This document shows, piece by piece, positions 1-63,095 of a stretch of DNA of 64,000 nucleotides (positions within the stretch are counted from its first letter, which is position 1; every line of letters begins with the position of its first letter). The position numbers and the translations under genes were made by a program. The stretch lies in NCBI GenBank assembly GCA_044238605.1, contig JBIICY010000008.1, positions 6,507-70,506 on the forward strand, given 5' to 3'. The notes beneath the pieces are model-generated. The model searched no databases. It was not told the origin of the DNA and was given only the letters and a program-made list of their open reading frames with translations. This DNA is from Patescibacteria group bacterium. GTDB taxonomy: Bacteria; Bacteroidota; Ignavibacteria; Kapaibacteriales; Kapaibacteriaceae.

Positions 1-192
1 CGTGATCATGAGCGGCAGCTTGAGCGTTCTGCCCAGAAACTGCGTCTGCGTAGAGATCTCTGCAAGATCGATCTCGGGAAGTGCGTTGTAGACGAACTCC
101 CAGTCATCAAAGGACGTCCCTTTGCGACGAAACCGTACGTCTTCCTGCAGCGCTATGCGCACATGATCTTCTTTGCGAGAATGAACAGACAT
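1..192 (-). CDS. fni: Type 2 (FMN-dependent) isopentenyl-diphosphate delta-isomerase, N-terminal part, runs off the window edge
   Basis: Manual translation from ATG 192: MSVHSRKEDHVRIALQEDVRFRRKGTSFDDWEFVYNALPEIDLAEISTQTQFLGRTLKLPLMIT. RKxxH and ALPE motifs are typical of IDI-2. Not in the ORF track. Confidence 0.9.
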   Translation of the reverse strand, partial: MSVHSRKEDHVRIALQEDVRFRRKGTSFDDWEFVYNALPEIDLAEISTQTQFLGRTLKLPLMIT

Positions 193-203
193 GCAAACCT
201 TGG

Positions 204-1226
204 TTATCGTCGAACAACAAACCGCTCGCCAGCTAACTGCGTCACGAACCCTAAAAGTTCAAACTCCAGCAGCTTACTACGTGCACTGGCTACATCACAT
301 GCAAACATCGCGCAAAACTCATCAAGGTAATGAGGCGCCCCATCATCGATAGACTGCAGCTCTACCGGCAGTCGCGCTATAGGCAACAGACCTGCCTGCG
401 GCACAACCGTAACCGACGAACTCGAGAGCAGCATTTCTGCCTTGCCTGAAGCGCACAGTGCATTGCAGCCCTCGCTTCTAGCCGACGTGATAGGACCAGG
501 CACGGCATAGAGCGGTTTACCCTGCTGCAGAGCAAACTCTGCCGTGATAAGTGCTCCGCCCCTTGACTTACTCTCAATAACAACCACAGCATCAGAGAGT
601 GCCGCGATGATCCTGTTTCGAGCGGGAAAGGCAGGGGGCAGGGCAGCAACCCCACACGGATGCTCAGAGACCACTGCTCCGTGTCCACTCGAAATGCGTC
701 GCGCCAAATCGCTTGCTGTTTTCGGCGTAATGCGATCGATACCACTGGCAATCACTGCAATGGTGGGCGTATTGTTCTGGATGGCAGCCTCGTGTGCGAT
801 CGTATCGACGCCGTTAGCTAAACCGCTCACGATAACCGTCCCGCTGCGTGCCCAGTCTGCCACGAGCATTCTTGTTACCGGCAACCCATACTGATGCGTA
901 CACTGACGTGTGCCCACAACCCCTACGCTGTGCATTGCAGCATCGGGCAACGTGCCTGCAACAAACAAGACCGACGGCGGATTTGCTATCTGCCGAAGAC
1001 GCGACGGATATGCAGCGTCAACGATCGTAACGATCGTTACATCATGCTTGGAGCACCGCTCGCGCTGCTCATCACACAGGCGCTCTAGATCGGAGGGCAT
1101 TGCCCCCAGCATAGCGAGCGCATCCTGCAGCACATCGCATGCATGCGCAAGCCGAATGATTTCATCGTTGGTAACCCCGCCCAGAAGACGCAGCGCAAGA
1201 ACATCATCAGAAGTCAACATCAGCAT
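204..1226 (-). CDS. dprA: DNA-processing protein DprA (Smf)
   Basis: YPSRLRQIANPP, VVGTR, IVSGLANGVD, FPARNRIIAALS, GGALITA motifs; C-terminal winged-helix-like segment. Confidence 0.95.
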   Translation of the reverse strand: MLMLTSDDVLALRLLGGVTNDEIIRLAHACDVLQDALAMLGAMPSDLERLCDEQRERCSKHDVTIVTIVDAAYPSRLRQIANPPSVLFVAGTLPDAAMHSVGVVGTRQCTHQYGLPVTRMLVADWARSGTVIVSGLANGVDTIAHEAAIQNNTPTIAVIASGIDRITPKTASDLARRISSGHGAVVSEHPCGVAALPPAFPARNRIIAALSDAVVVIESKSRGGALITAEFALQQGKPLYAVPGPITSARSEGCNALCASGKAEMLLSSSSVTVVPQAGLLPIARLPVELQSIDDGAPHYLDEFCAMFACDVASARSKLLEFELLGFVTQLAGERFVVRR

Positions 1227-1344
1227 TCCCTTTTATGTCATAGTGCCTCGAAAGGCAGGGAATGTGAAGAGGGACGGGAAGCACCTTCTCACCTTCTTCT
1301 CTGCGGGCCCCTTGCTCGAAGTGCTTCGATAACAACCCAAAGCC

Positions 1345-1352
1345 TATCTTTG
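1345..1352 (+). promoter_or_regulatory. Bacteroidota-type -7 promoter element (TATCTTTG)
   Basis: Exact match to TAnnTTTG, 35 nt upstream of the ATG at 1388. Confidence 0.6.
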
Positions 1353-1387
1353 CCGCGAAGCAACGCTCCAACAAAAATCGGTTAATC

Positions 1388-2059
1388 ATGAAGTCCCTCG
1401 TTCTGTTCTTCGCTACAGCTCTATTTCTTGCATCCTGCTCCGACCCAGTTGAGCCAACACCTACTGCGCCTATTGTGCCTGGTGTTGGGTCAACATTCTC
1501 GTATGCAACGTACAATACGAACGAGCGTGGAGAGAAGATCACTGGCACTGATGGCCAGTTTGTAACGACTGTTGTTGCGAATAATTCCACAGTTAGTGGC
1601 AACAGTGGGGTGTGGTCAATCGCTGGACCTAACACCGATACGATGTGCTTCAACATTGATACGTACAAAGACCTTGGCTTTCGTACGAACACAGTTGGCG
1701 AGACGTATTTCGATACAACCTGGGTGCGGTTGGCAATTGAGACCGGCGTTGAAGGAACAGTATCTACGAGCGAAAGTTTGAATGGGGTTCGAACGGTAAA
1801 GTCTGTCACGTGTCAGCCAGGTGGCTTACTCTCGTTTACGATTGCTGGCAAGACGATAGTTACACACTCGTTCAAGATCACGTACTCGATCGTACAAACC
1901 ACAAACAATGTAGAGACCTCTAACGTGTCTCGCGCCGTTGCTGTATGGTATGCTCCATCGCTCGGTACGTTCGTCAGGCGTACAACGCTCCCACAAACAT
2001 GGCTTGGGAAGCAGATCAGTGGTCAGGTCGAAGAACTAACTGGATTTACGCTGAAGTAG
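1388..2059 (+). CDS. Hypothetical beta-rich lipoprotein
   Basis: Signal peptide with lipobox LASC; Thr/Val-rich beta-strand composition. Confidence 0.8.
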   Translation: MKSLVLFFATALFLASCSDPVEPTPTAPIVPGVGSTFSYATYNTNERGEKITGTDGQFVTTVVANNSTVSGNSGVWSIAGPNTDTMCFNIDTYKDLGFRTNTVGETYFDTTWVRLAIETGVEGTVSTSESLNGVRTVKSVTCQPGGLLSFTIAGKTIVTHSFKITYSIVQTTNNVETSNVSRAVAVWYAPSLGTFVRRTTLPQTWLGKQISGQVEELTGFTLK

Positions 2060-2298
2060 GATTGTTCCTCGATTTATTCTTCGGCTTCGCGAAGTGAGGC
2101 AACGTTCGGCTGTTCCTGGACTCTCGTGAGGAATGCCGCCTGGCCATCAGTGCCGGCGTAGTATCGGTACTGCCTGCATCCACAACTCTGGTCTGGGCTC
2201 TTTTGATGCGCGTAAACAGCAGGATGCTGGAGGTTACAAGCAACAGCTATGAGATAACGCTTACGACGAGTACGGCTTCGATCCTCTGATGTATCCTC

Positions 2299-5292
2299 TT
2301 AACTCATGAGCTTGTTTATCGCGCGCTGCAGCGCTGGACGCAGGTCTTCTGGGAAGGGGCTGATGAGCCGCGTTAGATGCTTCCGCAGGTCTTCTGCGAA
2401 CTGACGCAGCTTCGGCAGTATCTCGCTGATCAAGATGGCATCTGTGGGAAGCTCAATGTGCACCTTGCCGAGTCCTGCAAGCAGGGCTATGCATTCGGCT
2501 TCTTCCTGTGATTCACAGTCGAGCACAACGTCCGGACGTGCCCCTTTCCATGTTCGTACTCTCCACCCAAACATTGTTCCGTCCACTTCGGCACGCGTGA
2601 TGCCAGATTCGAGCACAACTTCCCGACGGTTTGCTGCAGGCAGCTGGTTGATGTAGGGGACGTACCAGGTCTTCAGTGGACGCAGCTTGTGGTCGCGCTC
2701 GAGTTCGTGGAGTAGGGTGTTTGTGAGGTGACGCACGTTCGATGGACGTGACCACCATGCGTAGGCAAAACGGTAGATCCAGCGTTGCTCTTCGTCAGTG
2801 AGGCCAAAGACATCCTGCATAAGAAGGACGTCTAGTTTTCGGCGGTCACGGCGGACAGTTTCCGGACGAATTGTATCGGAAGAACTTGCGCCAAACTCGT
2901 CCGCTAAGGTTGCAATTGCACGTCGCGTTAGCTGCTGTAGCGATGGGTCTGCAATTACCGAGAGAACAGCATCATCCGGGATTGGAAACTCCTGCGTATC
3001 GCGCACGGTGATATCAGCCACGTTGTCGGTAAGCCGCATAAGCTGACTAAAGAACAACCCTAGTGTGGAGTTCATCCATAAGGCCACGGCATCGCGCTGT
3101 GTGATGTTTGCAAGCGTAACGCCAATGAATGCATCCGTTGCATAGGCATCTATGGAGTTAACGTGCACAATCCACCGTCGGTGCTGCTGCTTCGGGATGA
3201 TAAGGTGTGCGATCGACGGAGTAGGCACATGCCACCATACGCTGCGATTACGTATGCTTGGGCGCAGGTGAACACCGTCGCGCTCGGCACGCTCAATGCG
3301 TGTGAGTACGTTGGTACCCTGCATGGCATTGCGGTCTTCGGGCAGCAGCAGCAGACGTCTGTCTGATCGTGGAATGCCCATGATCGACTCTATATCATCA
3401 GCCGATGTAAGGATCGTTGCGTCTACCGTTGTTCCATTCCCGCGAGTGCGCTGCCAATACTCTGACTCAAGATTATCTGTAGCGATATCGTGCGTATCAG
3501 GTGCAAAGATCTCGTTCGCGCCTGTGCGCAAGCCCCCTCCTACATCTGCAATCGATGATAGGGGGCGCATGCGGTGCAGTGTTTTTCGGAGTACAGAAGA
3601 GAGCACATCAGGCGGAATCAGGTAATCTTCCCATGACCCGGCATCGGTGAGGTTGGACTGCGGAATCATCCGCACAACTGCTTCGTCGTTTACCTTGCCT
3701 CTGTCCGATGCATCTAGATAAGCAATGAAGGCATCGAGAGATTTCAGTCGCGCCTGCTCAAGGTCGCGTGATGCTTTCGATGAAGGGAAGAAAGCGGCAA
3801 TCGGTCTGCGCAGATATACAAAGCGTGCCAAGTGACGGTGATGCTCTACTTCGGTCTTGCGGGCTACGATGCAGCATACTCCTGCATCCGGCTCGGCAAG
3901 GGCCTCTACGTCGCTCATGATTACCCACTCGATAGCATATCCAGCAGCTAAGGCCTGACGCATGGCGGTGTAGCGATCATCGTGCAGAGATGAAAGGGGC
4001 AGAAACAGTACCACGCATCCGTCAGCCGCAATGGGCATGCGTTCCAGCAACAGCCGCAGACGATGCCGTTCTGTAACGTCTGCACTGGTAGCTACAACAA
4101 GATCCCATTGTCTGCGTGCTGCACGAGTTTCTCGCAGAATCTGTACGTCTGCCGCAACGTCGAGTTTCCCTGATGCCCGCAGCACGATAGCACGCTCGTC
4201 TTCGCTGTTACGCGCATACACGCGGGCTTCGCACGGTGTGCTCTGCGCCATCAGCATCTGCCGAACACTTGCCAAACCCTGGGTCTGACCGATCTCGAGC
4301 ATGGAGATACGCTCGGGCGCATGATCGCGCACGTGTACTACCGCACGTAGGGCAAGGTCGAGCGCATCGATCGTTGGAACCGATGTACGAGAAATACGCG
4401 CACATCTCTGCAGGATTGCATCAACGGCGCGGTGGAGTTCGTGATCTGTTAAGCGCTCTGGATCGAACCGGTGCAGGAAGTGGATCAGATCCGCAAGCGT
4501 CATCCGAAAAACTTCCTGCCTGTCTGGCAGCACGCGGACGTTTGCTACGCTGTGTGGAAGCATAGCGTAGCCTTTGCGCCGGGCTTGACGGAAGTACGCA
4601 CCCACAAGGTCCAGCATAAGGTCCGAGCTGCGCGTCCCATAGGGTATTGCCAGTCTGTCAAACGCATCACGATTTCGCACGTGCATCAGCACATAGGCCA
4701 GAATGCTCGTGCCCAATCGTAGTGTGTATTCGCGTTGTTCGGCTGTAGGTTCTGTGCACGATGTAAGGTCATCAAACATCGACAGCACACGTTCCGAGAA
4801 AAATGCAGAGGCATCGCGCACTTGCTGTTGCTGGGGTATGGAGGACTCGATCGTAAGCCAGTTTACAGCATGTGATAGGGCGGCAACGAGCGACAGCTGC
4901 ACGCCAGATGCCTTGGTGTCTTCAGCGGTGCGCACATCCGCCCCCTGCTGCCAGCCAACGACTTGTTCTTCGTCGGGCAGCCGCTTGGTAACAGCATCTG
5001 TGCGGTAGGTAACAACCCTACGAATATTCGTGAGGATGAAGTAGGGGCTCTGCACACGCGAGGCAACAGAGCGCAGTTTGTCCCGCGGAACATCGTCGAA
5101 CGGACTCTCCGTGGGCTGAATGGCATCAACAACTGCCAGCACCGTTCCATCTGCATGCTTGAGCATGAGAAAGGCGCCTTCGACACTCGTGAACTCTTCG
5201 ATGGTAAGACGCTTAGATGCATCAGCTGTAAGCTGCTGCAGACACGATGTAAGCGTAGAACGCAGGATGTGGGATGTTTGGGCAGGCGACAT
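2299..5292 (-). CDS. Type IIG (Eco57I-like) restriction-modification-like protein with degenerate catalytic motifs
   Basis: Domain order is nuclease-like N-terminus (PYFILTNIRRVVTY), N6-MTase fold, then TaqI-C-like recognition domain (PLSSIADVGGGLRTGANEIF, WMNSTL). Motif I position reads LEIGQTQG and motif IV position reads WDLVVATSAD. Confidence 0.75.
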   Translation of the reverse strand: MSPAQTSHILRSTLTSCLQQLTADASKRLTIEEFTSVEGAFLMLKHADGTVLAVVDAIQPTESPFDDVPRDKLRSVASRVQSPYFILTNIRRVVTYRTDAVTKRLPDEEQVVGWQQGADVRTAEDTKASGVQLSLVAALSHAVNWLTIESSIPQQQQVRDASAFFSERVLSMFDDLTSCTEPTAEQREYTLRLGTSILAYVLMHVRNRDAFDRLAIPYGTRSSDLMLDLVGAYFRQARRKGYAMLPHSVANVRVLPDRQEVFRMTLADLIHFLHRFDPERLTDHELHRAVDAILQRCARISRTSVPTIDALDLALRAVVHVRDHAPERISMLEIGQTQGLASVRQMLMAQSTPCEARVYARNSEDERAIVLRASGKLDVAADVQILRETRAARRQWDLVVATSADVTERHRLRLLLERMPIAADGCVVLFLPLSSLHDDRYTAMRQALAAGYAIEWVIMSDVEALAEPDAGVCCIVARKTEVEHHRHLARFVYLRRPIAAFFPSSKASRDLEQARLKSLDAFIAYLDASDRGKVNDEAVVRMIPQSNLTDAGSWEDYLIPPDVLSSVLRKTLHRMRPLSSIADVGGGLRTGANEIFAPDTHDIATDNLESEYWQRTRGNGTTVDATILTSADDIESIMGIPRSDRRLLLLPEDRNAMQGTNVLTRIERAERDGVHLRPSIRNRSVWWHVPTPSIAHLIIPKQQHRRWIVHVNSIDAYATDAFIGVTLANITQRDAVALWMNSTLGLFFSQLMRLTDNVADITVRDTQEFPIPDDAVLSVIADPSLQQLTRRAIATLADEFGASSSDTIRPETVRRDRRKLDVLLMQDVFGLTDEEQRWIYRFAYAWWSRPSNVRHLTNTLLHELERDHKLRPLKTWYVPYINQLPAANRREVVLESGITRAEVDGTMFGWRVRTWKGARPDVVLDCESQEEAECIALLAGLGKVHIELPTDAILISEILPKLRQFAEDLRKHLTRLISPFPEDLRPALQRAINKLMS

Positions 5293-5293
5293 T

Positions 5294-6643
5294 CTATCTG
5301 CGGACTAACGATGTTACACGTGTGATCAGTTCCTGTGCTTCGTCTTGCGTTGGAGCTTCAGCAATCACGCGAGCTATAGGCTCAGTATTCGATGCACGCA
5401 CCTGCACCCATCGATCGGCCATGCCAATAAACACTCCGTCGAGGGTGGAGATCTCGGCGTCTGGAAATGCCAACATAATGTCGGTAAATGAAGCTGCTAA
5501 TGCCTCGCGGCTCTCAAGCTCAAACTTGGTCTTGATCATTGCATACGATGGCAGCTCTGCGCATGCCTGGGACATAGTTAGGCTATGGGAGCGGAGATAC
5601 GACGAGATAACGCCAAGACCCACTAGACTGTCGCGTCCAGAATGACATGCCGGATAGATCACGCCGCCAGAGCCCTCACCGCCGATAACGGCGCCCACTG
5701 ATTGCATCTTGCGTACAACGTTGATCTCACCTACGGGAGCGCGATGGCAGGTAACACCGTACGAGGCTGCTACGTCGTCCACAACGCGTGTGGTAGAAAA
5801 GTTTACGACTACATCACCCCGTTCACCGCTGTCGAGAACTGCTTTTGTAGCCAGAGCTATCGTGCGTTCTTCGCCAACCGGCATGCCGTGTTCATCAAAT
5901 AAGACGAGTCGGTCTCCATCTGGATCTATGGCCACACCGAACGCAGCATTGTGCTGACGTACAGCTTCTCCAAGCTGCGTCAGGTTCTCGGTAAGGGGCT
6001 CGGGTGTATGGGGGAATATTCCGGATCCATCGCAGAAGAGCCGAACAACCTCGTAGCCCATTCGCTCAAGCAGCATAGGTGCGCTTACAGAGGCAGAGCA
6101 GTTAACGGCATCTACCACTACGCGCTGTGCATCAGAGCGTGGGGCAGAGCGCACAGCCGGGATGTCGCAGACGCGGTCTACATGAAACATGTCGGCATCG
6201 TGCCGAAACACAACATGCCCATGCTGCTGGTTTGGAGATAACGAATCTGGCGCAGGAGTATCAGCTGCAGCCCACAGCCGTGCGTTTGCTTCTGCATCCA
6301 GGAAGACGCCGCCGGCGTCGAGAAACTTCAGTCCGTTCCATGGCGCAGGATTATGCGATGCAGTAATCGCAATGCCGCCTAAGGCATCTGTGTGTTCGGT
6401 GATAAGCTGTACGGTGGGTGTTGTGGCAACGTTGAGCACCACAACTGGACGTCCGCATGCGCGCAGCGTACCAACAACGATGTCCTGCATCCACGCCCCG
6501 CTCGGACGTCCGTCTCTGCCAACTACGATAGCCCCCTGAGGGAGAATCGCGTGAAATGCCCACGCATACTGGGCCACAAGCGTTGGCGTTAGGTCGTTGC
6601 CGAGTGTTGCGCGAAGTCCGGAGATGGATCGAATACAGGCCAT
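5294..6643 (-). CDS. glmM: Phosphoglucosamine mutase
   Basis: SISGLRA N-terminus, TASHNP phosphoserine motif, DPDGDR metal loop, GGEGSGG; start moved to ATG 6643. Confidence 0.9.
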   Translation of the reverse strand: MACIRSISGLRATLGNDLTPTLVAQYAWAFHAILPQGAIVVGRDGRPSGAWMQDIVVGTLRACGRPVVVLNVATTPTVQLITEHTDALGGIAITASHNPAPWNGLKFLDAGGVFLDAEANARLWAAADTPAPDSLSPNQQHGHVVFRHDADMFHVDRVCDIPAVRSAPRSDAQRVVVDAVNCSASVSAPMLLERMGYEVVRLFCDGSGIFPHTPEPLTENLTQLGEAVRQHNAAFGVAIDPDGDRLVLFDEHGMPVGEERTIALATKAVLDSGERGDVVVNFSTTRVVDDVAASYGVTCHRAPVGEINVVRKMQSVGAVIGGEGSGGVIYPACHSGRDSLVGLGVISSYLRSHSLTMSQACAELPSYAMIKTKFELESREALAASFTDIMLAFPDAEISTLDGVFIGMADRWVQVRASNTEPIARVIAEAPTQDEAQELITRVTSLVRR

Positions 6644-6648
6644 AATGC

Positions 6649-8049
6649 TCAGTGTTGTGGTGCTGTGCCGCAGAGTGCTTCGATATCTGCAGCAGTACGT
6701 GCAAGAGTTGCAGAGAGGTTTACAGGACCTTCTGCAGTGATGAGAATATCGTCCTCGATGCGCACCCCGATGTTCCACCATCGTTTGTCGCATGCCGAGC
6801 CGGCTGGAATATAAATGCCAGGCTCAACAGTAATAACAGAGTTTACCTGAAGGGGTCCGCCCGTACCAGGATCATGCACATCGAGTCCCAGATAATGGGA
6901 TGTACCGTGCATGAAGTACTGCTTTACATCAGCAAGATCCTTGATGACGCCCAGCTTGAGCAGTCCGTCGGCGATTACGGTTGTAGCTGCTGCGTGCGGC
7001 GCGCGAAAGGGTGCTCCGGCAACGGACGCGGCAATGCCGGCATCCTGCGCTGCCAGAACGAGATCGTAGATCTGACGCTGTTCATTAGTGAACTTGCCCG
7101 AGAGCGGAAACGTGCGTGTGATGTCTGCCGTATACCCGTGATACTCCGCACCGCAGTCTGCCAGCACGAGGTCGTTCATCGTTGTTGCGCGTCTGTTAGC
7201 TGTGTAGTGCAGAATGCATGCATTGTAGTTGGACCCAACGATCGATGGATATCCTACGTCTTCCGCTCCTCCGCGTTTGAAGCCATACTCCATAAGAGCT
7301 TCGAGCTCGTATTCCTTCATGCCCGGGCGGGCGCCGCGCATGGTTGTGCGGTGACCCTCCATAGAGATCTCGATGGCTTTGCGGAGCAGACGTAGCTCTG
7401 AGGTGTCTTTTACTTCCCGCATCGCGCGCAGAATAGACATCGGCGTCTTGAGGATGATGGATGCGTTGCGTTCCTTGACCCATTTCTTGAGCTCTGCATC
7501 GGCATAGAGGTTCTTGCCGGCAAGGGGCACCTGGAGCGACTTTGTTGGAAGCGTTGAGTAGTGCAGGGTGTCGAGGCGCTGCAACAGTGAGTCGAGAACT
7601 ACTTTTAAATCTGTTGCAACCACCGCCGTGTCTACGCCCAGATACTGCATTGCTTCAGTAGGACCCATACTCACGCCCTGCCATACTTCGCGGTCCTGAT
7701 TGCGCTTTGGAATGAACAGCACTTCCGTGTACGTGCGATCTCCCAACTGAATGCCACCGGGTGCGAGCAGGAGTGTTGTACCGGGAGTCTGACATCCAGT
7801 AAGATAGAGCATGTCTGAACTTTGACGGTACTCGTAGTCTACATCGTTTTGTCTGTTGCGCACATCGGCAGAAAACACGATGGCCGCAGACCGCTGCGTA
7901 AGCGATGCTGCCACTCGCGCCCTGCGTTCTTTGTAGACGTGCGGCAACGGTAGGTCTGTGTCAAACACCTCGAAAGGAAATGTCTGTGCCGGGGCATGCA
8001 AGCCCCCTACAACTGCTGCGAGCAAGGCAGCGACAAGTATGCGTGTCAT
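6649..8049 (-). CDS. pepP: Xaa-Pro aminopeptidase (aminopeptidase P, M24B) with signal peptide
   Basis: YEYRQSSD AMP_N domain, LHY, DCGAE..ADITRT, HGTSHYLGLDVHD, TVEPGIY, RIEDD; start ATG 8049. Confidence 0.9.
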   Translation of the reverse strand: MTRILVAALLAAVVGGLHAPAQTFPFEVFDTDLPLPHVYKERRARVAASLTQRSAAIVFSADVRNRQNDVDYEYRQSSDMLYLTGCQTPGTTLLLAPGGIQLGDRTYTEVLFIPKRNQDREVWQGVSMGPTEAMQYLGVDTAVVATDLKVVLDSLLQRLDTLHYSTLPTKSLQVPLAGKNLYADAELKKWVKERNASIILKTPMSILRAMREVKDTSELRLLRKAIEISMEGHRTTMRGARPGMKEYELEALMEYGFKRGGAEDVGYPSIVGSNYNACILHYTANRRATTMNDLVLADCGAEYHGYTADITRTFPLSGKFTNEQRQIYDLVLAAQDAGIAASVAGAPFRAPHAAATTVIADGLLKLGVIKDLADVKQYFMHGTSHYLGLDVHDPGTGGPLQVNSVITVEPGIYIPAGSACDKRWWNIGVRIEDDILITAEGPVNLSATLARTAADIEALCGTAPQH

Positions 8050-8080
8050 GGGGCGCAAATTAGGCACGAAGTCCCCCAAG

Positions 8081-8812
8081 TCACACCGCCACACACAGTG
8101 TTGCTGCGTCTACTCTTCGGGCTCCAGCTTCGATAAGAGCAGTTGCACAGGCATTGAGTGTAGAGCCGGTTGTGAGTACATCGTCGATAAGCAGGATGTG
8201 GGTGTTCAGAATGCTATCGGGATTCGGCACTGTGAAGATCCCGCTTACGTTCGAACGGCGGTCTGCGTCGGACTTTGTGGTTTGAGATTCCGTGTATCGG
8301 TTGCGGACGATGCTGTCAGAGTTGAGCATCGGTAGCCCACTTCGCTCGCAGAAGCCCTTAGCAATAAGCTCGGTCTGATTGTAACCCCGCTCTCTTCGCC
8401 GGGCAGGGTGGATGGGCACGGGGCAGACCAGGGTTTCTGGGTCTAGCGCAGACTGCATGCAATGTTCAGCGAGAATACGTCCAAGCGCAACGGCAAGGTG
8501 CGTGCGACCGCCGTATTTGATGGCGTAGATCGCATTGTCGATGGTAGACGTCTGCGACAGCGCCCAAAGTGCAGAGAATTGGGAGATCATCAGATCGTCC
8601 GCCTGGACGTGACGCTGGATGAGCAGCTCGATATCAATAGGACGCGGAGCCGGCTGATGAAACAGCAGTGCCGTGTCCGTTACACCAGGTGCATAGGTAG
8701 GGGCGGTAGAAAGACGCTCGCCCGTAAGCAGACAATGCTCGGGGTAGAGTGTGGAAGCCAGAGCACGGCAAGTATTACGTGCATGCTGGACCACCATGTC
8801 CAGAATGCACAT
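8081..8812 (-). CDS. comF: ComF family protein (PRTase fold)
   Basis: PVPIHPARRRERGYNQ and LLIDDVLTTGSTL motifs; true start may be a few codons downstream. Confidence 0.9.
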   Translation of the reverse strand: MCILDMVVQHARNTCRALASTLYPEHCLLTGERLSTAPTYAPGVTDTALLFHQPAPRPIDIELLIQRHVQADDLMISQFSALWALSQTSTIDNAIYAIKYGGRTHLAVALGRILAEHCMQSALDPETLVCPVPIHPARRRERGYNQTELIAKGFCERSGLPMLNSDSIVRNRYTESQTTKSDADRRSNVSGIFTVPNPDSILNTHILLIDDVLTTGSTLNACATALIEAGARRVDAATLCVAV

Positions 8813-8821
8813 GGAGTTACC

Positions 8822-9886
8822 TTACGGTGTAAGAACAAACTGTAGGCGCTCTTCGATCTCGCGTGGCAGTACTGGCTTAAGCTTATCTGGCAGGAGATAC
8901 GAAGACAGTGCTGGGATATCATTGAAGATGCGCTGACGCATCGCGGTCTGCATGAGGTATTCGTGACCGCTAGATCCGCCTGTACCTACACGCATGCCGA
9001 TCATCCTGCTTACCATCATTGTGTGACGGTACCGCCATAGAGCCACCAGTCTGTCGAGTTCTACGATAGCTTCGAGAAATCGGAATGGGGCTTGCAGCAA
9101 CGGACGATCCTGATACGCCGTAATGAATAGTACCGCCAGCGAGGCATTAAGTGACATTCTGCGTTTGCCCTCGGCTACGAGCTGATCGTATGATTCCTTG
9201 TTGAGCAAAGCCATAAGGCTTTCTTCATTGCGGTCTATCTGCGCTAGTGCCTCTGTTGGATCGGTGTTCTCTGCTTCACTGAGGATACGAACTTCTTTGC
9301 GGTCGTTGTCCAGCATCTCGCGTGCGGACTTGGTAAACGACGATAGAATTCCGAAGTCTCCCATCTGCAGAAATGGGATACGGGCAAGCCAGTTTTCGAT
9401 CACAGAAAAGAGTGTTGATCCAGCCGTCGCGGTTTCAAGCTCCTGCCGGTGTTCTGGAGTAAGAGCTTCTGTGTAGTGCTTTAGTACTCGCTGGTCTTCC
9501 TGCAGGCCAAGTTTACGTTCCAGGATGCGCCATTGCAGAGATTGAAATCCACTCGCTGGATTCAGATACGCTCGGAAGTTCATGAACTGCATCGGCGTCA
9601 TCGTTTCCATGATGGAAAACTGATTGCACAAAAGGTCCATGATCTTGTTTACTCGCTCAATGCGAGTTGCACACAGATGAATTGCTGATTCTGCAACAAC
9701 TGGTTTATCCAGTAGGTCAATTACCGAGTTTACTTCGAACAGCACTTGCTTGAACCACAGCTCAAAGGCCTGGTGCGTGATGATGAAGAGCATTTCCTCA
9801 TGAGCGTGGTCGTTTGCCTTATCGCTCTCCAGTTCCTGTGCATTCAGGATCTTGTCCAGTCCGAGGTAATCTGCGTAGTATACCAT
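8822..9886 (-). CDS. kynA: Tryptophan 2,3-dioxygenase
   Basis: YADYLGLD, HEEMLFIITHQAFELWFKQ, PASGFQSLQ, WRYRH..RMIG..GTGGSSG motifs. Confidence 0.95.
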   Translation of the reverse strand: MVYYADYLGLDKILNAQELESDKANDHAHEEMLFIITHQAFELWFKQVLFEVNSVIDLLDKPVVAESAIHLCATRIERVNKIMDLLCNQFSIMETMTPMQFMNFRAYLNPASGFQSLQWRILERKLGLQEDQRVLKHYTEALTPEHRQELETATAGSTLFSVIENWLARIPFLQMGDFGILSSFTKSAREMLDNDRKEVRILSEAENTDPTEALAQIDRNEESLMALLNKESYDQLVAEGKRRMSLNASLAVLFITAYQDRPLLQAPFRFLEAIVELDRLVALWRYRHTMMVSRMIGMRVGTGGSSGHEYLMQTAMRQRIFNDIPALSSYLLPDKLKPVLPREIEERLQFVLTP

Positions 9887-9903
9887 GATGTCAGCTTGTG
9901 CGT

Positions 9904-10533
9904 TTAGAATTGTTCAGATGTGCGGAACACTGCCGTGCGGGCGATCATATCATGCAGGGCCTGCTTTTTAGCCGAGAGCACGATCAAGCAACCGATCAAG
10001 ATAACCACTTCTACCAGCGACGACGCACTTGTGATGCCTCGTGCAACGATGTCTGCTACCGGAAGCACGGCAATGAGCTTAAGAATTCTGTCGGAGATTT
10101 TGATCACGGTGCGCATGGCAATGATGCTTGGCTCAGCAACAGCCCCGTCTTCGCGTCCGATACGCAGCTTCAGTATCCGCTTTCCGATGGATGCACCTGT
10201 AAAGGCTTCGATAGACCAATACAGAATGGGACTGATAAACCCTGCATAGAGCATCGAGACAAGGTAGGGGAGTGCTTCATTCATCACATCACGTGGGAAG
10301 CCAAATGCCTTCATGCTGGCTAGTAGCTCCTTCAGCGACTCCTTAATGAACTCCGTCTGTCCGGGTTGAATGGAGCTGATGATGAGCACAAGGGTAATCG
10401 TAACAAACCACAATCCAACTTGGTCGATAGCCCATGCGCCAAGGCGCAGACCAAAACCAACGCGTTTGTCTTCGATGGTTGGCTGGTACGACGTAAATGG
10501 ATTTGTCGAAGGGGGCTGTGGTATCTCGCTCAT
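9904..10533 (-). CDS. RDD family membrane protein
   Basis: GFGLRLGAWAID, GASIGKRILKLRI, KQALHDMIART motifs. Confidence 0.9.
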   Translation of the reverse strand: MSEIPQPPSTNPFTSYQPTIEDKRVGFGLRLGAWAIDQVGLWFVTITLVLIISSIQPGQTEFIKESLKELLASMKAFGFPRDVMNEALPYLVSMLYAGFISPILYWSIEAFTGASIGKRILKLRIGREDGAVAEPSIIAMRTVIKISDRILKLIAVLPVADIVARGITSASSLVEVVILIGCLIVLSAKKQALHDMIARTAVFRTSEQF

Positions 10534-15548: not shown

Positions 15549-15630
15549 GTGCGTGTAAATGCCGTGAAACGTAAGCCACAAAAGTACGGCATAACACGGT
15601 AGGGGCGAGACGGGGGGGAGACGAGGGGAC

Positions 15631-15704
15631 TGGTTAATGGGTACGGGTTACGGATTACTGGGTACTGGGTGCGGGTTACGGATTACGGATTACTGGGTAC
15701 TGGG
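15631..15704. repeat. Heptamer tandem array (TGGGTAC/GGGTTAC/GGATTAC), about 10 units
   Basis: tggttaa tgggtac gggttac ggattac tgggtac tgggtgc gggttac ggattac ggattac tgggtac tggg. Confidence 0.9.
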
Positions 15705-15898: not shown

Positions 15899-15948
15899 TG
15901 CTGCTTGCTGCTCGCTGCTCGCTGTTCGCTGCTCGCTGCTCGCTGCTC
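15899..15948. repeat. Heptamer tandem array (CGCTGCT)n, 7 units
   Basis: tgctgct tgctgct cgctgct cgctgtt cgctgct cgctgct cgctgct; reverse complement of the array at 63028-63095. Confidence 0.9.
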
Positions 15949-62036: not shown

Positions 62037-63032
62037 ATGAAACTCTGTACATTCCTCAGCGCCGATGCCGAACGCATCGGCGTTCTCGTTAACAACCGTG
62101 TTGTTGATATGTGTCTTGCTCATGCAACTGCACTTATGAGTGGCGCACAACTTCAGTTTGGTGTCTGTACTGCTAACATAGTTGAGTTCCTTCAGCTCGG
62201 TGAAGCCGGCATGAAAGAGCTGCGGGATGTTATCTCGTGGTACAGCGCTCAGCCAGAATCAGTTCAGGCTGGTCTGTCGCATCCAGCAGAAGGACTTCAT
62301 GTACTCTCTCCTGTCCCACGCCCAACCTCAATGCGCGATGGCTATGCGTTTCGTCAGCACGTAGAGGCCGCACGGCGCAACCGTGGACTCGAGATGATCC
62401 CCGAGTTCGACGAGATCCCAATTTTCTATTTCACAAATCACCAGGCTGTATTCGGTCCGGGTGATGTGCACGTGCAGGATCTTCATTGTCAGCAGTTAGA
62501 CTTCGAACTCGAATGCGCCATTGTGATCGGGAAGAAGGGACGCAACATCAAGGCCTCTGAGGCCGACTCGTACATTGCCGGACTAATGGTGATGAACGAC
62601 TGGAGCGCCCGCGTGCTCCAGATGCAGGAAATGAAGCTTAATCTTGGTCCTGCCAAGGGAAAAGACTTTGCCACTACACTCGGACCATGGCTTGTAACAC
62701 TGGACGAGCTGGCAGACGTAACAACTACAACGCCGGTAGGGAATCATTACGACCTTGCAATGAAGTGCGTGATCAACGGTCAGGACGTATCTGTTGGCAA
62801 CGTCAAAGACATGTCGTGGACATTTGCCCAGATCATTGAGCGCGCCAGCTATGGCGTTACGCTCTATCCAGGCGATGTTATCGGTAGCGGCACATGCGGC
62901 ACAGGGTGCTTCCTTGAGCTCAACGGCAGCAAGGTCTACGATCCAGCATGGTGGCTTAAGCCCGGAGATGTTGTAACGTGCTCGATTGATAGGCTTGGCG
63001 ATCTGACGAATACGATTGTGTTGGATAAGTAG
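62037..63032 (+). CDS. Fumarylacetoacetate hydrolase family protein
   Basis: RDGYAFRQHV, LDFELE, NDWSAR, KGKDFAT, GDVIGSGT. Confidence 0.93.
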   Translation: MKLCTFLSADAERIGVLVNNRVVDMCLAHATALMSGAQLQFGVCTANIVEFLQLGEAGMKELRDVISWYSAQPESVQAGLSHPAEGLHVLSPVPRPTSMRDGYAFRQHVEAARRNRGLEMIPEFDEIPIFYFTNHQAVFGPGDVHVQDLHCQQLDFELECAIVIGKKGRNIKASEADSYIAGLMVMNDWSARVLQMQEMKLNLGPAKGKDFATTLGPWLVTLDELADVTTTTPVGNHYDLAMKCVINGQDVSVGNVKDMSWTFAQIIERASYGVTLYPGDVIGSGTCGTGCFLELNGSKVYDPAWWLKPGDVVTCSIDRLGDLTNTIVLDK

Positions 63033-63095
63033 CGAGTAGCAAGCAGCGAGCAGCGAACAGCGAGCAGCGAGCAGCGAGTAGCGAGTAGCGAGTAG
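63028..63095. repeat. Heptamer tandem array (AGCAGCG/AGTAGCG)n, about 10 units
   Basis: agtagcg agtagca agcagcg agcagcg aacagcg agcagcg agcagcg agtagcg agtagcg agtag; the first unit contains the FAH stop codon. Confidence 0.9.

Follow-up and report, generated by a model that had tools for sequence, protein, structure and literature searches.

A putatively domesticated Type IIG restriction-modification homologue without canonical catalytic motifs, retained across one family of Kapabacteria-like bacteria

Restriction-modification (RM) enzymes are textbook selfish, mobile and fast-turnover defence genes. Can such an enzyme lose the canonical motifs of both its activities and yet be kept by its host as a core gene? 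The question is raised by P0001, the product of an unbroken 997-codon open reading frame (ORF) on the minus strand at 2299..5292 (no internal stop; stop codon at 2299-2301) of a 64,000-nt stretch of contig JBIICY010000008.1, hereafter the window, from a genome of the Kapaibacteriaceae. The original prediction, an earlier reading of the same letters, had described the product as a full-length, apparently catalytically dead Type IIG RM protein, domesticated and kept under selection. Both the ORF and its translation bear out the uninterrupted frame it claimed, the minus strand having gone unstated there, and the eight peptide strings it quoted (ARFVYLRRP, WEDYLIPP, GLRTGANEIF and WMNSTL among them) are all present in P0001; the four offered in place of catalytic or cofactor motifs lie at residues 51-60 (VLAVVDAIQP), 302-307 (RTSVPT), 332-339 (LEIGQTQG) and 396-405 (WDLVVATSAD). 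Here we establish the ancestry and predicted fold of P0001, the loss of its motifs, its distribution and synteny and the selection acting on it, and on balance we lean towards the reading, based on sequence comparison and a predicted model, that it is a domesticated non-catalytic DNA-recognition protein derived from a Type IIG enzyme.

Ancestry, predicted fold and lost motifs

P0001 itself gave no match in Pfam (E<=0.01) or NCBIfam, and phmmer returned 0 matches among PDB sequences. A precomputed table gives Pfam PF22837 (M_Eco57I_C) for the family, and the PADLOC profile MTase_II matches residues 528-752 (E 1.8e-17) with its positions 233-454 of 539, i.e., with its recognition-domain half only. 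Among 7,998 candidates, a word-indexed protein search returned 59 proteins, 55 of which are orthologues of ~1000 aa (38-99% identity; some source names are Candidatus Kapabacteria, Ignavibacteria and Bacteroidota bacterium) and four of which are distant proteins of ~1030-1170 aa (24-27% identity); three of these four were rescanned, and each showed significant Pfam matches to Eco57I, N6_Mtase and MmeI_Mtase. An exhaustive search yielded 401 proteins at E<=0.001, only 17 of them at E<=1e-30. For the comparisons below we used an alignment of 13 family members with the four distant relatives (A1), a family profile (A2) of 49 sequences, from which the other 14 of the 63, namely P0065, P0066 and near-duplicates or fragments, were left out, and a profile of 19 NPPY-bearing, active-looking relatives (A3). 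Aligned by hhalign, A2 and A3 match with probability 100 (E 1.2e-74) over 952 columns, colinear from the N- to the C-terminus, and the NPPY-bearing relatives of ~1150 aa carry the Pfam domains Eco57I, N6_Mtase and M_Eco57I_C.

The predicted structure points to the same ancestry. An AlphaFold2 model built from A2 (predicted local distance difference test score, pLDDT, 89.4; predicted template modelling score, pTM, 0.80) finds as its best Foldseek match in the PDB the Type IIG enzyme BpuSI (3s1s; E 9.1e-21, 968 columns), followed by CamA, M.BseCI, PacII, DrdV, BrxX and MmeI; the match to BREX PglX/BrxX (9ewz) has E 3.2e-09. VIA-align gave Z 17.1 for BpuSI (model residues 10-851, 709 aligned, root-mean-square deviation (rmsd) 13.9), Z 18.6 for the HsdM subunit 2okc_A (163-564, 359 aligned, rmsd 4.0), Z 18.0 for M.BseCI (305-831, 455 aligned, rmsd 12.9), Z 17.4 for CamA (285-831, 470 aligned, rmsd 13.3) and Z 14.2-14.7 for M.TaqI (304-779, ~337 aligned). 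The structural match to the Type IIG fold, whose absence would have spoken against the original prediction, was thus found. Moreover, hhalign, Foldseek and VIA agree on the Type IIG module order, in which a nuclease-like, a helical, a gamma-class N6-adenine methyltransferase (MTase) and a target recognition domain (TRD) follow one another on a single chain. P0001 is a full-length Type IIG homologue by both profile and fold.

Along the chain, all on the minus strand, the PD-(D/E)xK-nuclease-like domain without catalytic motif occupies approximately residues 1-130 (4903..5292; the BpuSI alignment begins at model residue 10), with VLAVVDAIQP aligned to the place of the ExK motif (5113..5142). It is followed by a helical domain resembling the N-terminal one of HsdM-type methylase subunits (~131-300; 4393..4902), assigned from the 2okc_A match and secondary structure, and by a Rossmann-type MTase-like domain without N6-adenine MTase motifs (~301-500; 3793..4392), assigned from the M.BseCI, CamA and M.TaqI matches. 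Within the latter lie the motif I turn (residues 332-344, LEIGQTQGLASVR; 4261..4299), altered but near-invariant in A2, and WDLVVATSAD (4078..4107), which hhalign places at strand 4 and the NPPY loop. A TRD of the TaqI/CamA/M.BseCI kind with its following helices (~501-830; 2803..3792), assigned from PADLOC MTase_II and VIA, is the best-conserved part of the family. The chain ends in a domain consisting of a helix and a four-strand sheet (831-997; 2302..2802), which by alignment is common to the active-looking relatives; folded alone it reached an AlphaFold2 pLDDT of 88.0, and its fold searches gave no convincing match, either by Foldseek against the PDB (best E 0.19) or in a wide VIA search among 48,161 chains (best Z 5.1 over 54 residues).

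Set against the NPPY-bearing relatives, the motif substitutions claimed for P0001 are real. In A1, the nuclease motif PD...(I/L)E(F/x)KxP of the relatives reads G(T/S/A)F...(D/E/x)A(I/V/L)xP in the family, motif X (GQYFT) reads xxVPT, and motif I (DPxCGAGTF) reads LExGx(S/T)xG(L); motif IV (GNPPY) reads WD(L/V)V(V/C)(A/I)(T/S)x according to hhalign, which sets WDLVVATS opposite FDxxVGNPPY. A census of the 63 family sequences and 20 active-looking relatives found an NPPY-type motif at the catalytic site in 0/63 and 20/20, respectively, D[PL][AST]CG.G in 0/63 and 13/20, a GQYFT-like string in 1/63 and 19/20, and [DE]xKxP within the first 110 residues in 0/63 and 20/20; an unrelated DPPH occurs near residue 700 in three family sequences. 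At the former nuclease site, A2 position 56 is variable (D in 30 and E in 9 of 49), and position 58 is most commonly I, V, L, T or M (47/49). Among the 55 outgroup matches of at least 850 aa, 53 carry an NPPY-type motif and the other two keep DPACGGG. By these comparisons of sequence, the motif loss is complete, family-wide and, among the relatives found, specific to this family; no close relative with an intact NPPY was found, the nearest NPPY-bearing proteins being at most 27% identical. A FastTree phylogeny that took in 20 of the 63 family members and 45 of the 59 large outgroup proteins separates the family from the rest by a branch of support 100, its stem measuring 1.24 substitutions per column; the program warns of long-branch effects, and the tree is consistent with one ancient motif loss.

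NPPY, DPxCGxG and ExKxP are gone, in line with the statement that every catalytic or cofactor motif is altered; to call every cofactor motif dead would be an overstatement for motif I, where the turn is altered yet not eroded. Across A2, E333 and G335 are present in 49/49 sequences, G339 in 48/49 and R344 in 47/49, as is P306 of the former motif X in 49/49, and the pattern E.G.[STAH].[GS] occurs in 61 of the 63 family sequences, the other two being fragments. Such conservation would suit a ligand-sensing DNA binder, in which the Rossmann domain binds S-adenosylmethionine (SAM), S-adenosylhomocysteine (SAH) or another nucleotide via the turn and couples this to DNA binding, with no methyl transfer. 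The only PDB matches of the family profile, the SAM-dependent O-methyltransferases 2gpy (E 0.43) and 5zw3 (E 0.65), neither significant, have a motif I that reads LEIGTAIGYSAIR and aligns with the family turn; additionally, the ratio of nonsynonymous to synonymous substitution rates (dN/dS) of the MTase-like domain is 0.039, and a homocysteine methyltransferase/methylenetetrahydrofolate reductase (HcyMT/MTHFR) gene belongs to the same gene string. However, where the relatives carry GxD after strand 2, the family has no acid and shows A, P or T instead, and the glycines of the turn between beta1 and the helix may be kept for folding alone. Moreover, P0065 and P0066, which match genomes of genus g14, have lost ~45 residues of the Rossmann domain, the beta2-beta3 unit, and retain the turn and the whole TRD; since this subclade lacks the unit, ligand binding is possible in most members yet would be no universal function. 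We therefore regard a ligand sensor of this kind as unlikely, and as distinctly so the narrower idea that a whole Type IIG enzyme was exapted, when the family arose, to read chromosomal DNA, its former cofactor pocket having become a sensor for a metabolite, SAM or SAH for instance. If the latter were true, P0001 would be a metabolite-gated, sequence-specific DNA-binding regulator or DNA-handling factor of defence-enzyme origin, expressed together with genes for the cell envelope and for DNA processing.

The strong constraint on all domains, together with many family-invariant Arg, Asp and Glu residues, could also reflect a cryptic enzyme that uses non-canonical residues to modify or cleave its substrate, be it nucleic acid or something else. 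This does not sit well with the loop that replaces NPPY (positions 401-405), which is the least conserved part of its domain (37-61% in A2), with the partial deletion of that domain in one subclade, or with the missing acidic/lysine triad in place of PD-ExK, and we give cryptic catalysis a very slight probability.

A core gene with shifted constraint

The distribution of P0001 is that of a core gene. We drew 201 genomes evenly from the order, took matches at E<=1e-50 and kept the window's own genome outside the counts. One intact copy is present in 48 of 50 genomes of the window's family, spanning 8 of 8 genera, whereas ten sister families, with 150 genomes sampled, gave no match at all. The two family genomes without a match are 97% and 82% complete, and no stop codon interrupts any match among those listed. 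The weak matches in other families cover the TRD only and belong to frames of ~1141-1248 aa that are ordinary RM-type genes. In addition, 14 loci were picked from all 8 genera, and in 14/14 the P0001 orthologue follows the glmM-like gene in the same orientation.

The gene is also under strong purifying selection. Nei-Gojobori comparison with the closest orthologue (dS 0.18, the sole unsaturated pair of four) gave an overall dN/dS of 0.042, with 0.061 for the neighbouring glmM; by region, the values are 0.071 for the N-terminal domain, 0.019 for the helical domain, 0.039 for the MTase-like domain, 0.017 for the TRD and 0.088 for the C-terminal domain. A ratio of ~0.04, not ~1, speaks against recent neutral decay. 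The checks on sequence and predicted structure that accompanied the original prediction came out in its favour, with glmM synteny at 14/14 loci and the motif loss common to 63/63 family sequences, and its core inference, a domesticated pseudoenzyme under selection, is supported by the structural match, by close relatives free of NPPY and by the dN/dS of 0.04.

What is conserved has shifted as well. Mean pairwise identity within the family is 0.45 for the MTase-like domain, 0.49 for the TRD and 0.53 for the helices that follow it, as against 0.55, 0.34 and 0.42, respectively, among the active-looking relatives. Relative to the latter, constraint is inverted, and the recognition domain is now the best-conserved part. 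Because the TRD holds this position, sequence-specific DNA binding would be the best-fitting of the functions suggested for P0001. A protein scaffold without DNA binding, or a slowly decaying gene, would accord with the partial dispensability of the Rossmann domain in one subclade; decay, however, is excluded by the stop-free matches among those listed and by the dN/dS of 0.04, and a scaffold leaves the conservation of the TRD unexplained, so that little probability attaches to this alternative.

P0001 descends from a four-module, single-chain Type IIG enzyme (nuclease, helical, gamma-class N6-adenine MTase and TRD), whose canonical PD-ExK motif and NPPY loop appear to have been lost once, in the ancestor of one Kapabacteria-like family; since then it has been inherited as a core gene, in single copy and conserved synteny, with purifying selection acting strongly on it. 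We propose that the conserved TRD, carried on what was once the MTase/helical scaffold, would recognise a fixed sequence or structure in the DNA of the host chromosome and leave it uncut and unmethylated. Several points weigh against this proposal. DNA binding by P0001, its target and its cellular role are what we infer from sequence, and k-mer statistics of the genome offer no candidate target word. The nuclease-like and MTase-like domains are as constrained as the rest (dN/dS 0.04-0.07), which a function of the TRD only would leave unexplained. The near-invariant ExGx(S/T)xG and P306, which at marginal E-values resemble motif I of active O-methyltransferases, may reflect a ligand pocket or even an unorthodox activity. 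Finally, the RNA evidence described below comes from contigs only, which are strandless and may include DNA carried over.

Among known systems, Type IIG (IIC) enzymes of the BpuSI kind (3s1s), as well as those of Eco57I/MmeI type, DrdV and the Type ISP enzyme LlaGI, have the same domain order over the whole chain. The P0001 family differs from them in that PD-ExK, NPPY and DPxCGxG are absent and a GQYFT-like motif survives in just one sequence, that the segment from motif I to strand 4 is shorter, that the gene is core, syntenic and vertically inherited instead of patchy and mobile, and that the TRD is conserved instead of diversified. The closest described analogue is DndH, which, according to PMC10853773, has an inactive gamma-DAM domain with an eroded SAM loop, an eroded [SDN]PP[FYW] and a nested TRD, proposed to bind sites without modifying them. 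Common to both is a gamma-class MTase fold that lacks the usual motifs and is retained with its TRD. However, the same paper presents DndH as a defence-system protein that keeps an active restriction endonuclease domain and is fused to HerA/FtsK-type modules, whereas in P0001 the nuclease motif is also gone and no other Pfam domain is present. P0001 moreover lies among housekeeping genes, and its motif I turn, though altered, has stayed conserved where the SAM loop of DndH is eroded. BREX PglX/BrxX (9ewz) likewise has a large gamma-class MTase fold with a TRD; its catalytic MTase motifs are present and it resides in a BREX operon, according to PMC12707154, unlike P0001, which has neither active MTase motifs nor a BREX neighbourhood.

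The likeness to DndH bears on a further alternative, namely that P0001 is a defence decoy or sensor, an RM mimic that detects phage anti-restriction proteins or a dominant-negative occupier of sites that acts against invading RM elements. Its fold is that of a defence enzyme, and a dominant-negative role has been proposed for the inactive DAM domain of DndH in PMC10853773. Yet the gene is single-copy, syntenic and near-universal in the family, in contrast to defence and RM genes, which PMC12707154 characterizes as typically patchy and horizontally mobile; the G+C content along the gene (0.54-0.58) is like that of the surroundings, and its neighbours include no effector, no toxin and no other gene of defence. 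Since P0001 behaves as a core gene and lacks an effector neighbour, the decoy or sensor idea is weakened, and we consider its chances slim.

Orphan DNA methyltransferases kept as core genes, of which the core m5C methyltransferase of Helicobacter pylori is reportedly an example, provide another parallel, as they too derive from RM systems and have been retained in the core genome for a cellular role. They are, however, catalytically active and act by methylation, while P0001 has no catalytic loop. A literature search, which covered the sources in part, turned up no description of the P0001 family. In this case the whole enzyme, not the methylase alone, has lost the canonical motifs for both activities, and yet throughout an entire family of freshwater bacteria it is inherited vertically, in a fixed place and with the degree of constraint expected of a housekeeping gene. 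Should its DNA binding prove specific, the programmable TRD of Type IIG enzymes would be recruitable for host functions, and P0001 would offer a 'dead' RM scaffold of natural origin, in the spirit of dCas9.

Neighbouring genes and expression

P0001 was said to start 1 nt past the stop of an upstream glmM, and this was borne out, the junction reading TAG-A-ATG. The upstream gene (5294..6793, minus strand) encodes a glmM-like phosphoglucosamine mutase of the PGM/PMM family with all four Pfam domains; the family assignment stands and the name glmM is approximate, its best NCBIfam match, Arch_GlmM, scoring 425.9 bits against a cut-off of 439. As listed, this ORF shares 145 nt (6649-6793) with the end of the aminopeptidase ORF. 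Since alignment with its orthologues begins only near residue 50, translation probably starts just past the aminopeptidase stop. Further upstream on the same strand are genes for an Xaa-Pro aminopeptidase (PepP), a ComF-family phosphoribosyltransferase (TIGR00201, 85.4 bits, under its cut-off), a tryptophan 2,3-dioxygenase (TDO), an RDD protein, an HcyMT/MTHFR fusion and MauE, and the string MauE-HcyMT/MTHFR-RDD-TDO-ComF-PepP-GlmM-X, where X is the P0001 orthologue, is conserved around the family gene. About 1 kb downstream of P0001 lies dprA (204..1226, minus strand; TIGR00732, 218.6 bits, above the cut-off of 191.15), so that both the upstream comF-family gene and the downstream dprA that had been claimed are present on the strand of P0001.

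This neighbourhood raises the idea of a natural-transformation factor, which would recognise or handle incoming DNA together with DprA and ComF. The ComF-family gene is three genes upstream, and dprA follows X within ~300 bp in 10 of the 14 loci. However, the linkage of X to dprA is looser than that of glmM to X, with dprA 1.7-7.9 kb off in three of the 14 loci and not seen in one, within the 3.4 kb ahead of the contig end, and in the window a gene on the opposite strand intervenes; the remainder of the string is a mix of unrelated housekeeping genes. Moreover, glmM and dprA are unlinked in 5/5 genomes from five sister families, so the glmM-dprA neighbourhood appears to be a peculiarity of the lineage, and the genome shows no over-represented word resembling an uptake sequence, its top 10-12-mers being tandem arrays. 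A part in transformation therefore seems to us very unlikely. Given the same absence of linkage in the sister families, nothing could be inferred about an insertion of X into an ancestral glmM-dprA junction.

The intervening gene is a lipoprotein-like ORF of 223 aa (1388..2059, plus strand) whose N-terminus reads MKSLVLFFATALFLASC, with a signal ending in FLASC. Its product matches nothing in Pfam or NCBIfam, the ORF sits in a local G+C dip (0.49), and no opposite-strand ORF of this type was seen in the 10 other loci with dprA directly after X. It looks like a lineage-specific insertion and is probably expressed, as described below. Scans of positions 1-7000 for Rfam families, tRNAs, promoters and terminators gave nothing, pattern counts being near the shuffled expectation.

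The stretch is present in 20 public runs, all labelled as lake water metagenome, six of which are RNA libraries. We mapped contigs of at least 95% identity from four of these six onto positions 1-10000. In 4/4 runs, RNA-library contigs cover parts of the P0001 gene, in a patchy manner, and one contig (5228-5444) spans the junction of glmM and P0001 with 65 and 151 letters on either side. P0001 probably shares a transcript with glmM; as the contigs are strandless and some DNA may be present in an RNA library, support for co-transcription is weak. In 3/4 runs contigs start at 1370, and the deepest contigs fall on the 1388-2059 stretch. No contig from the four runs covers the dprA stretch 335-1336, which says nothing about its expression level.

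Target-word and repeat searches

Markov-corrected k-mer statistics over the 2.55-Mb genome revealed no uptake word of the DNA uptake sequence or uptake signal sequence (DUS/USS) kind. The commonest 10-12-mers, at ~120-175 copies, come from tandem arrays with a 7-bp unit or are AAGGGGCTT words resembling terminators. In the window, tandem arrays of the CAGCGAR type lie at 15900-15948 and 63031-63092 (TRF period 7; 7.0 and 8.9 copies), and the genome holds ~50 such arrays of at least three units and ~12 GGGACTA arrays, often beside GGTACTA or TAGCGAG variants. Among the genomes of the order, 10 of the 50 from the family carry three units of CAGCGAR, a pattern absent from all 150 sister-family genomes, and two of the 50 carry three units of GGGACTA. 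Short tandemly repeated heptamers are known from some cyanobacteria, and the CAGCGAR and GGGACTA arrays resemble them; GGGACTA also contains GGGAC, which we take to be the BpuSI site. The arrays were considered as a target of P0001 and rejected, since they do not track the gene (10/50 and 2/50 against 48/50) and CAGCGAR x3 occurs even in genome G019, which has no match to it.

Just upstream of the first heptamer array, a 28/35-bp imperfect tandem repeat rich in GGTTAC/GGGTAC occupies 15625-15704, an intergenic position past a DUF4953 met-zincin gene. Genome-wide, the palindrome GTCGAC is strongly under-represented (516 copies where 948 would be expected, z -17), perhaps owing to restriction pressure, past or present. 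On contig C2 of the same genome, a 565-aa frame encodes a separate N6_Mtase (PF02384, 253.9 bits).

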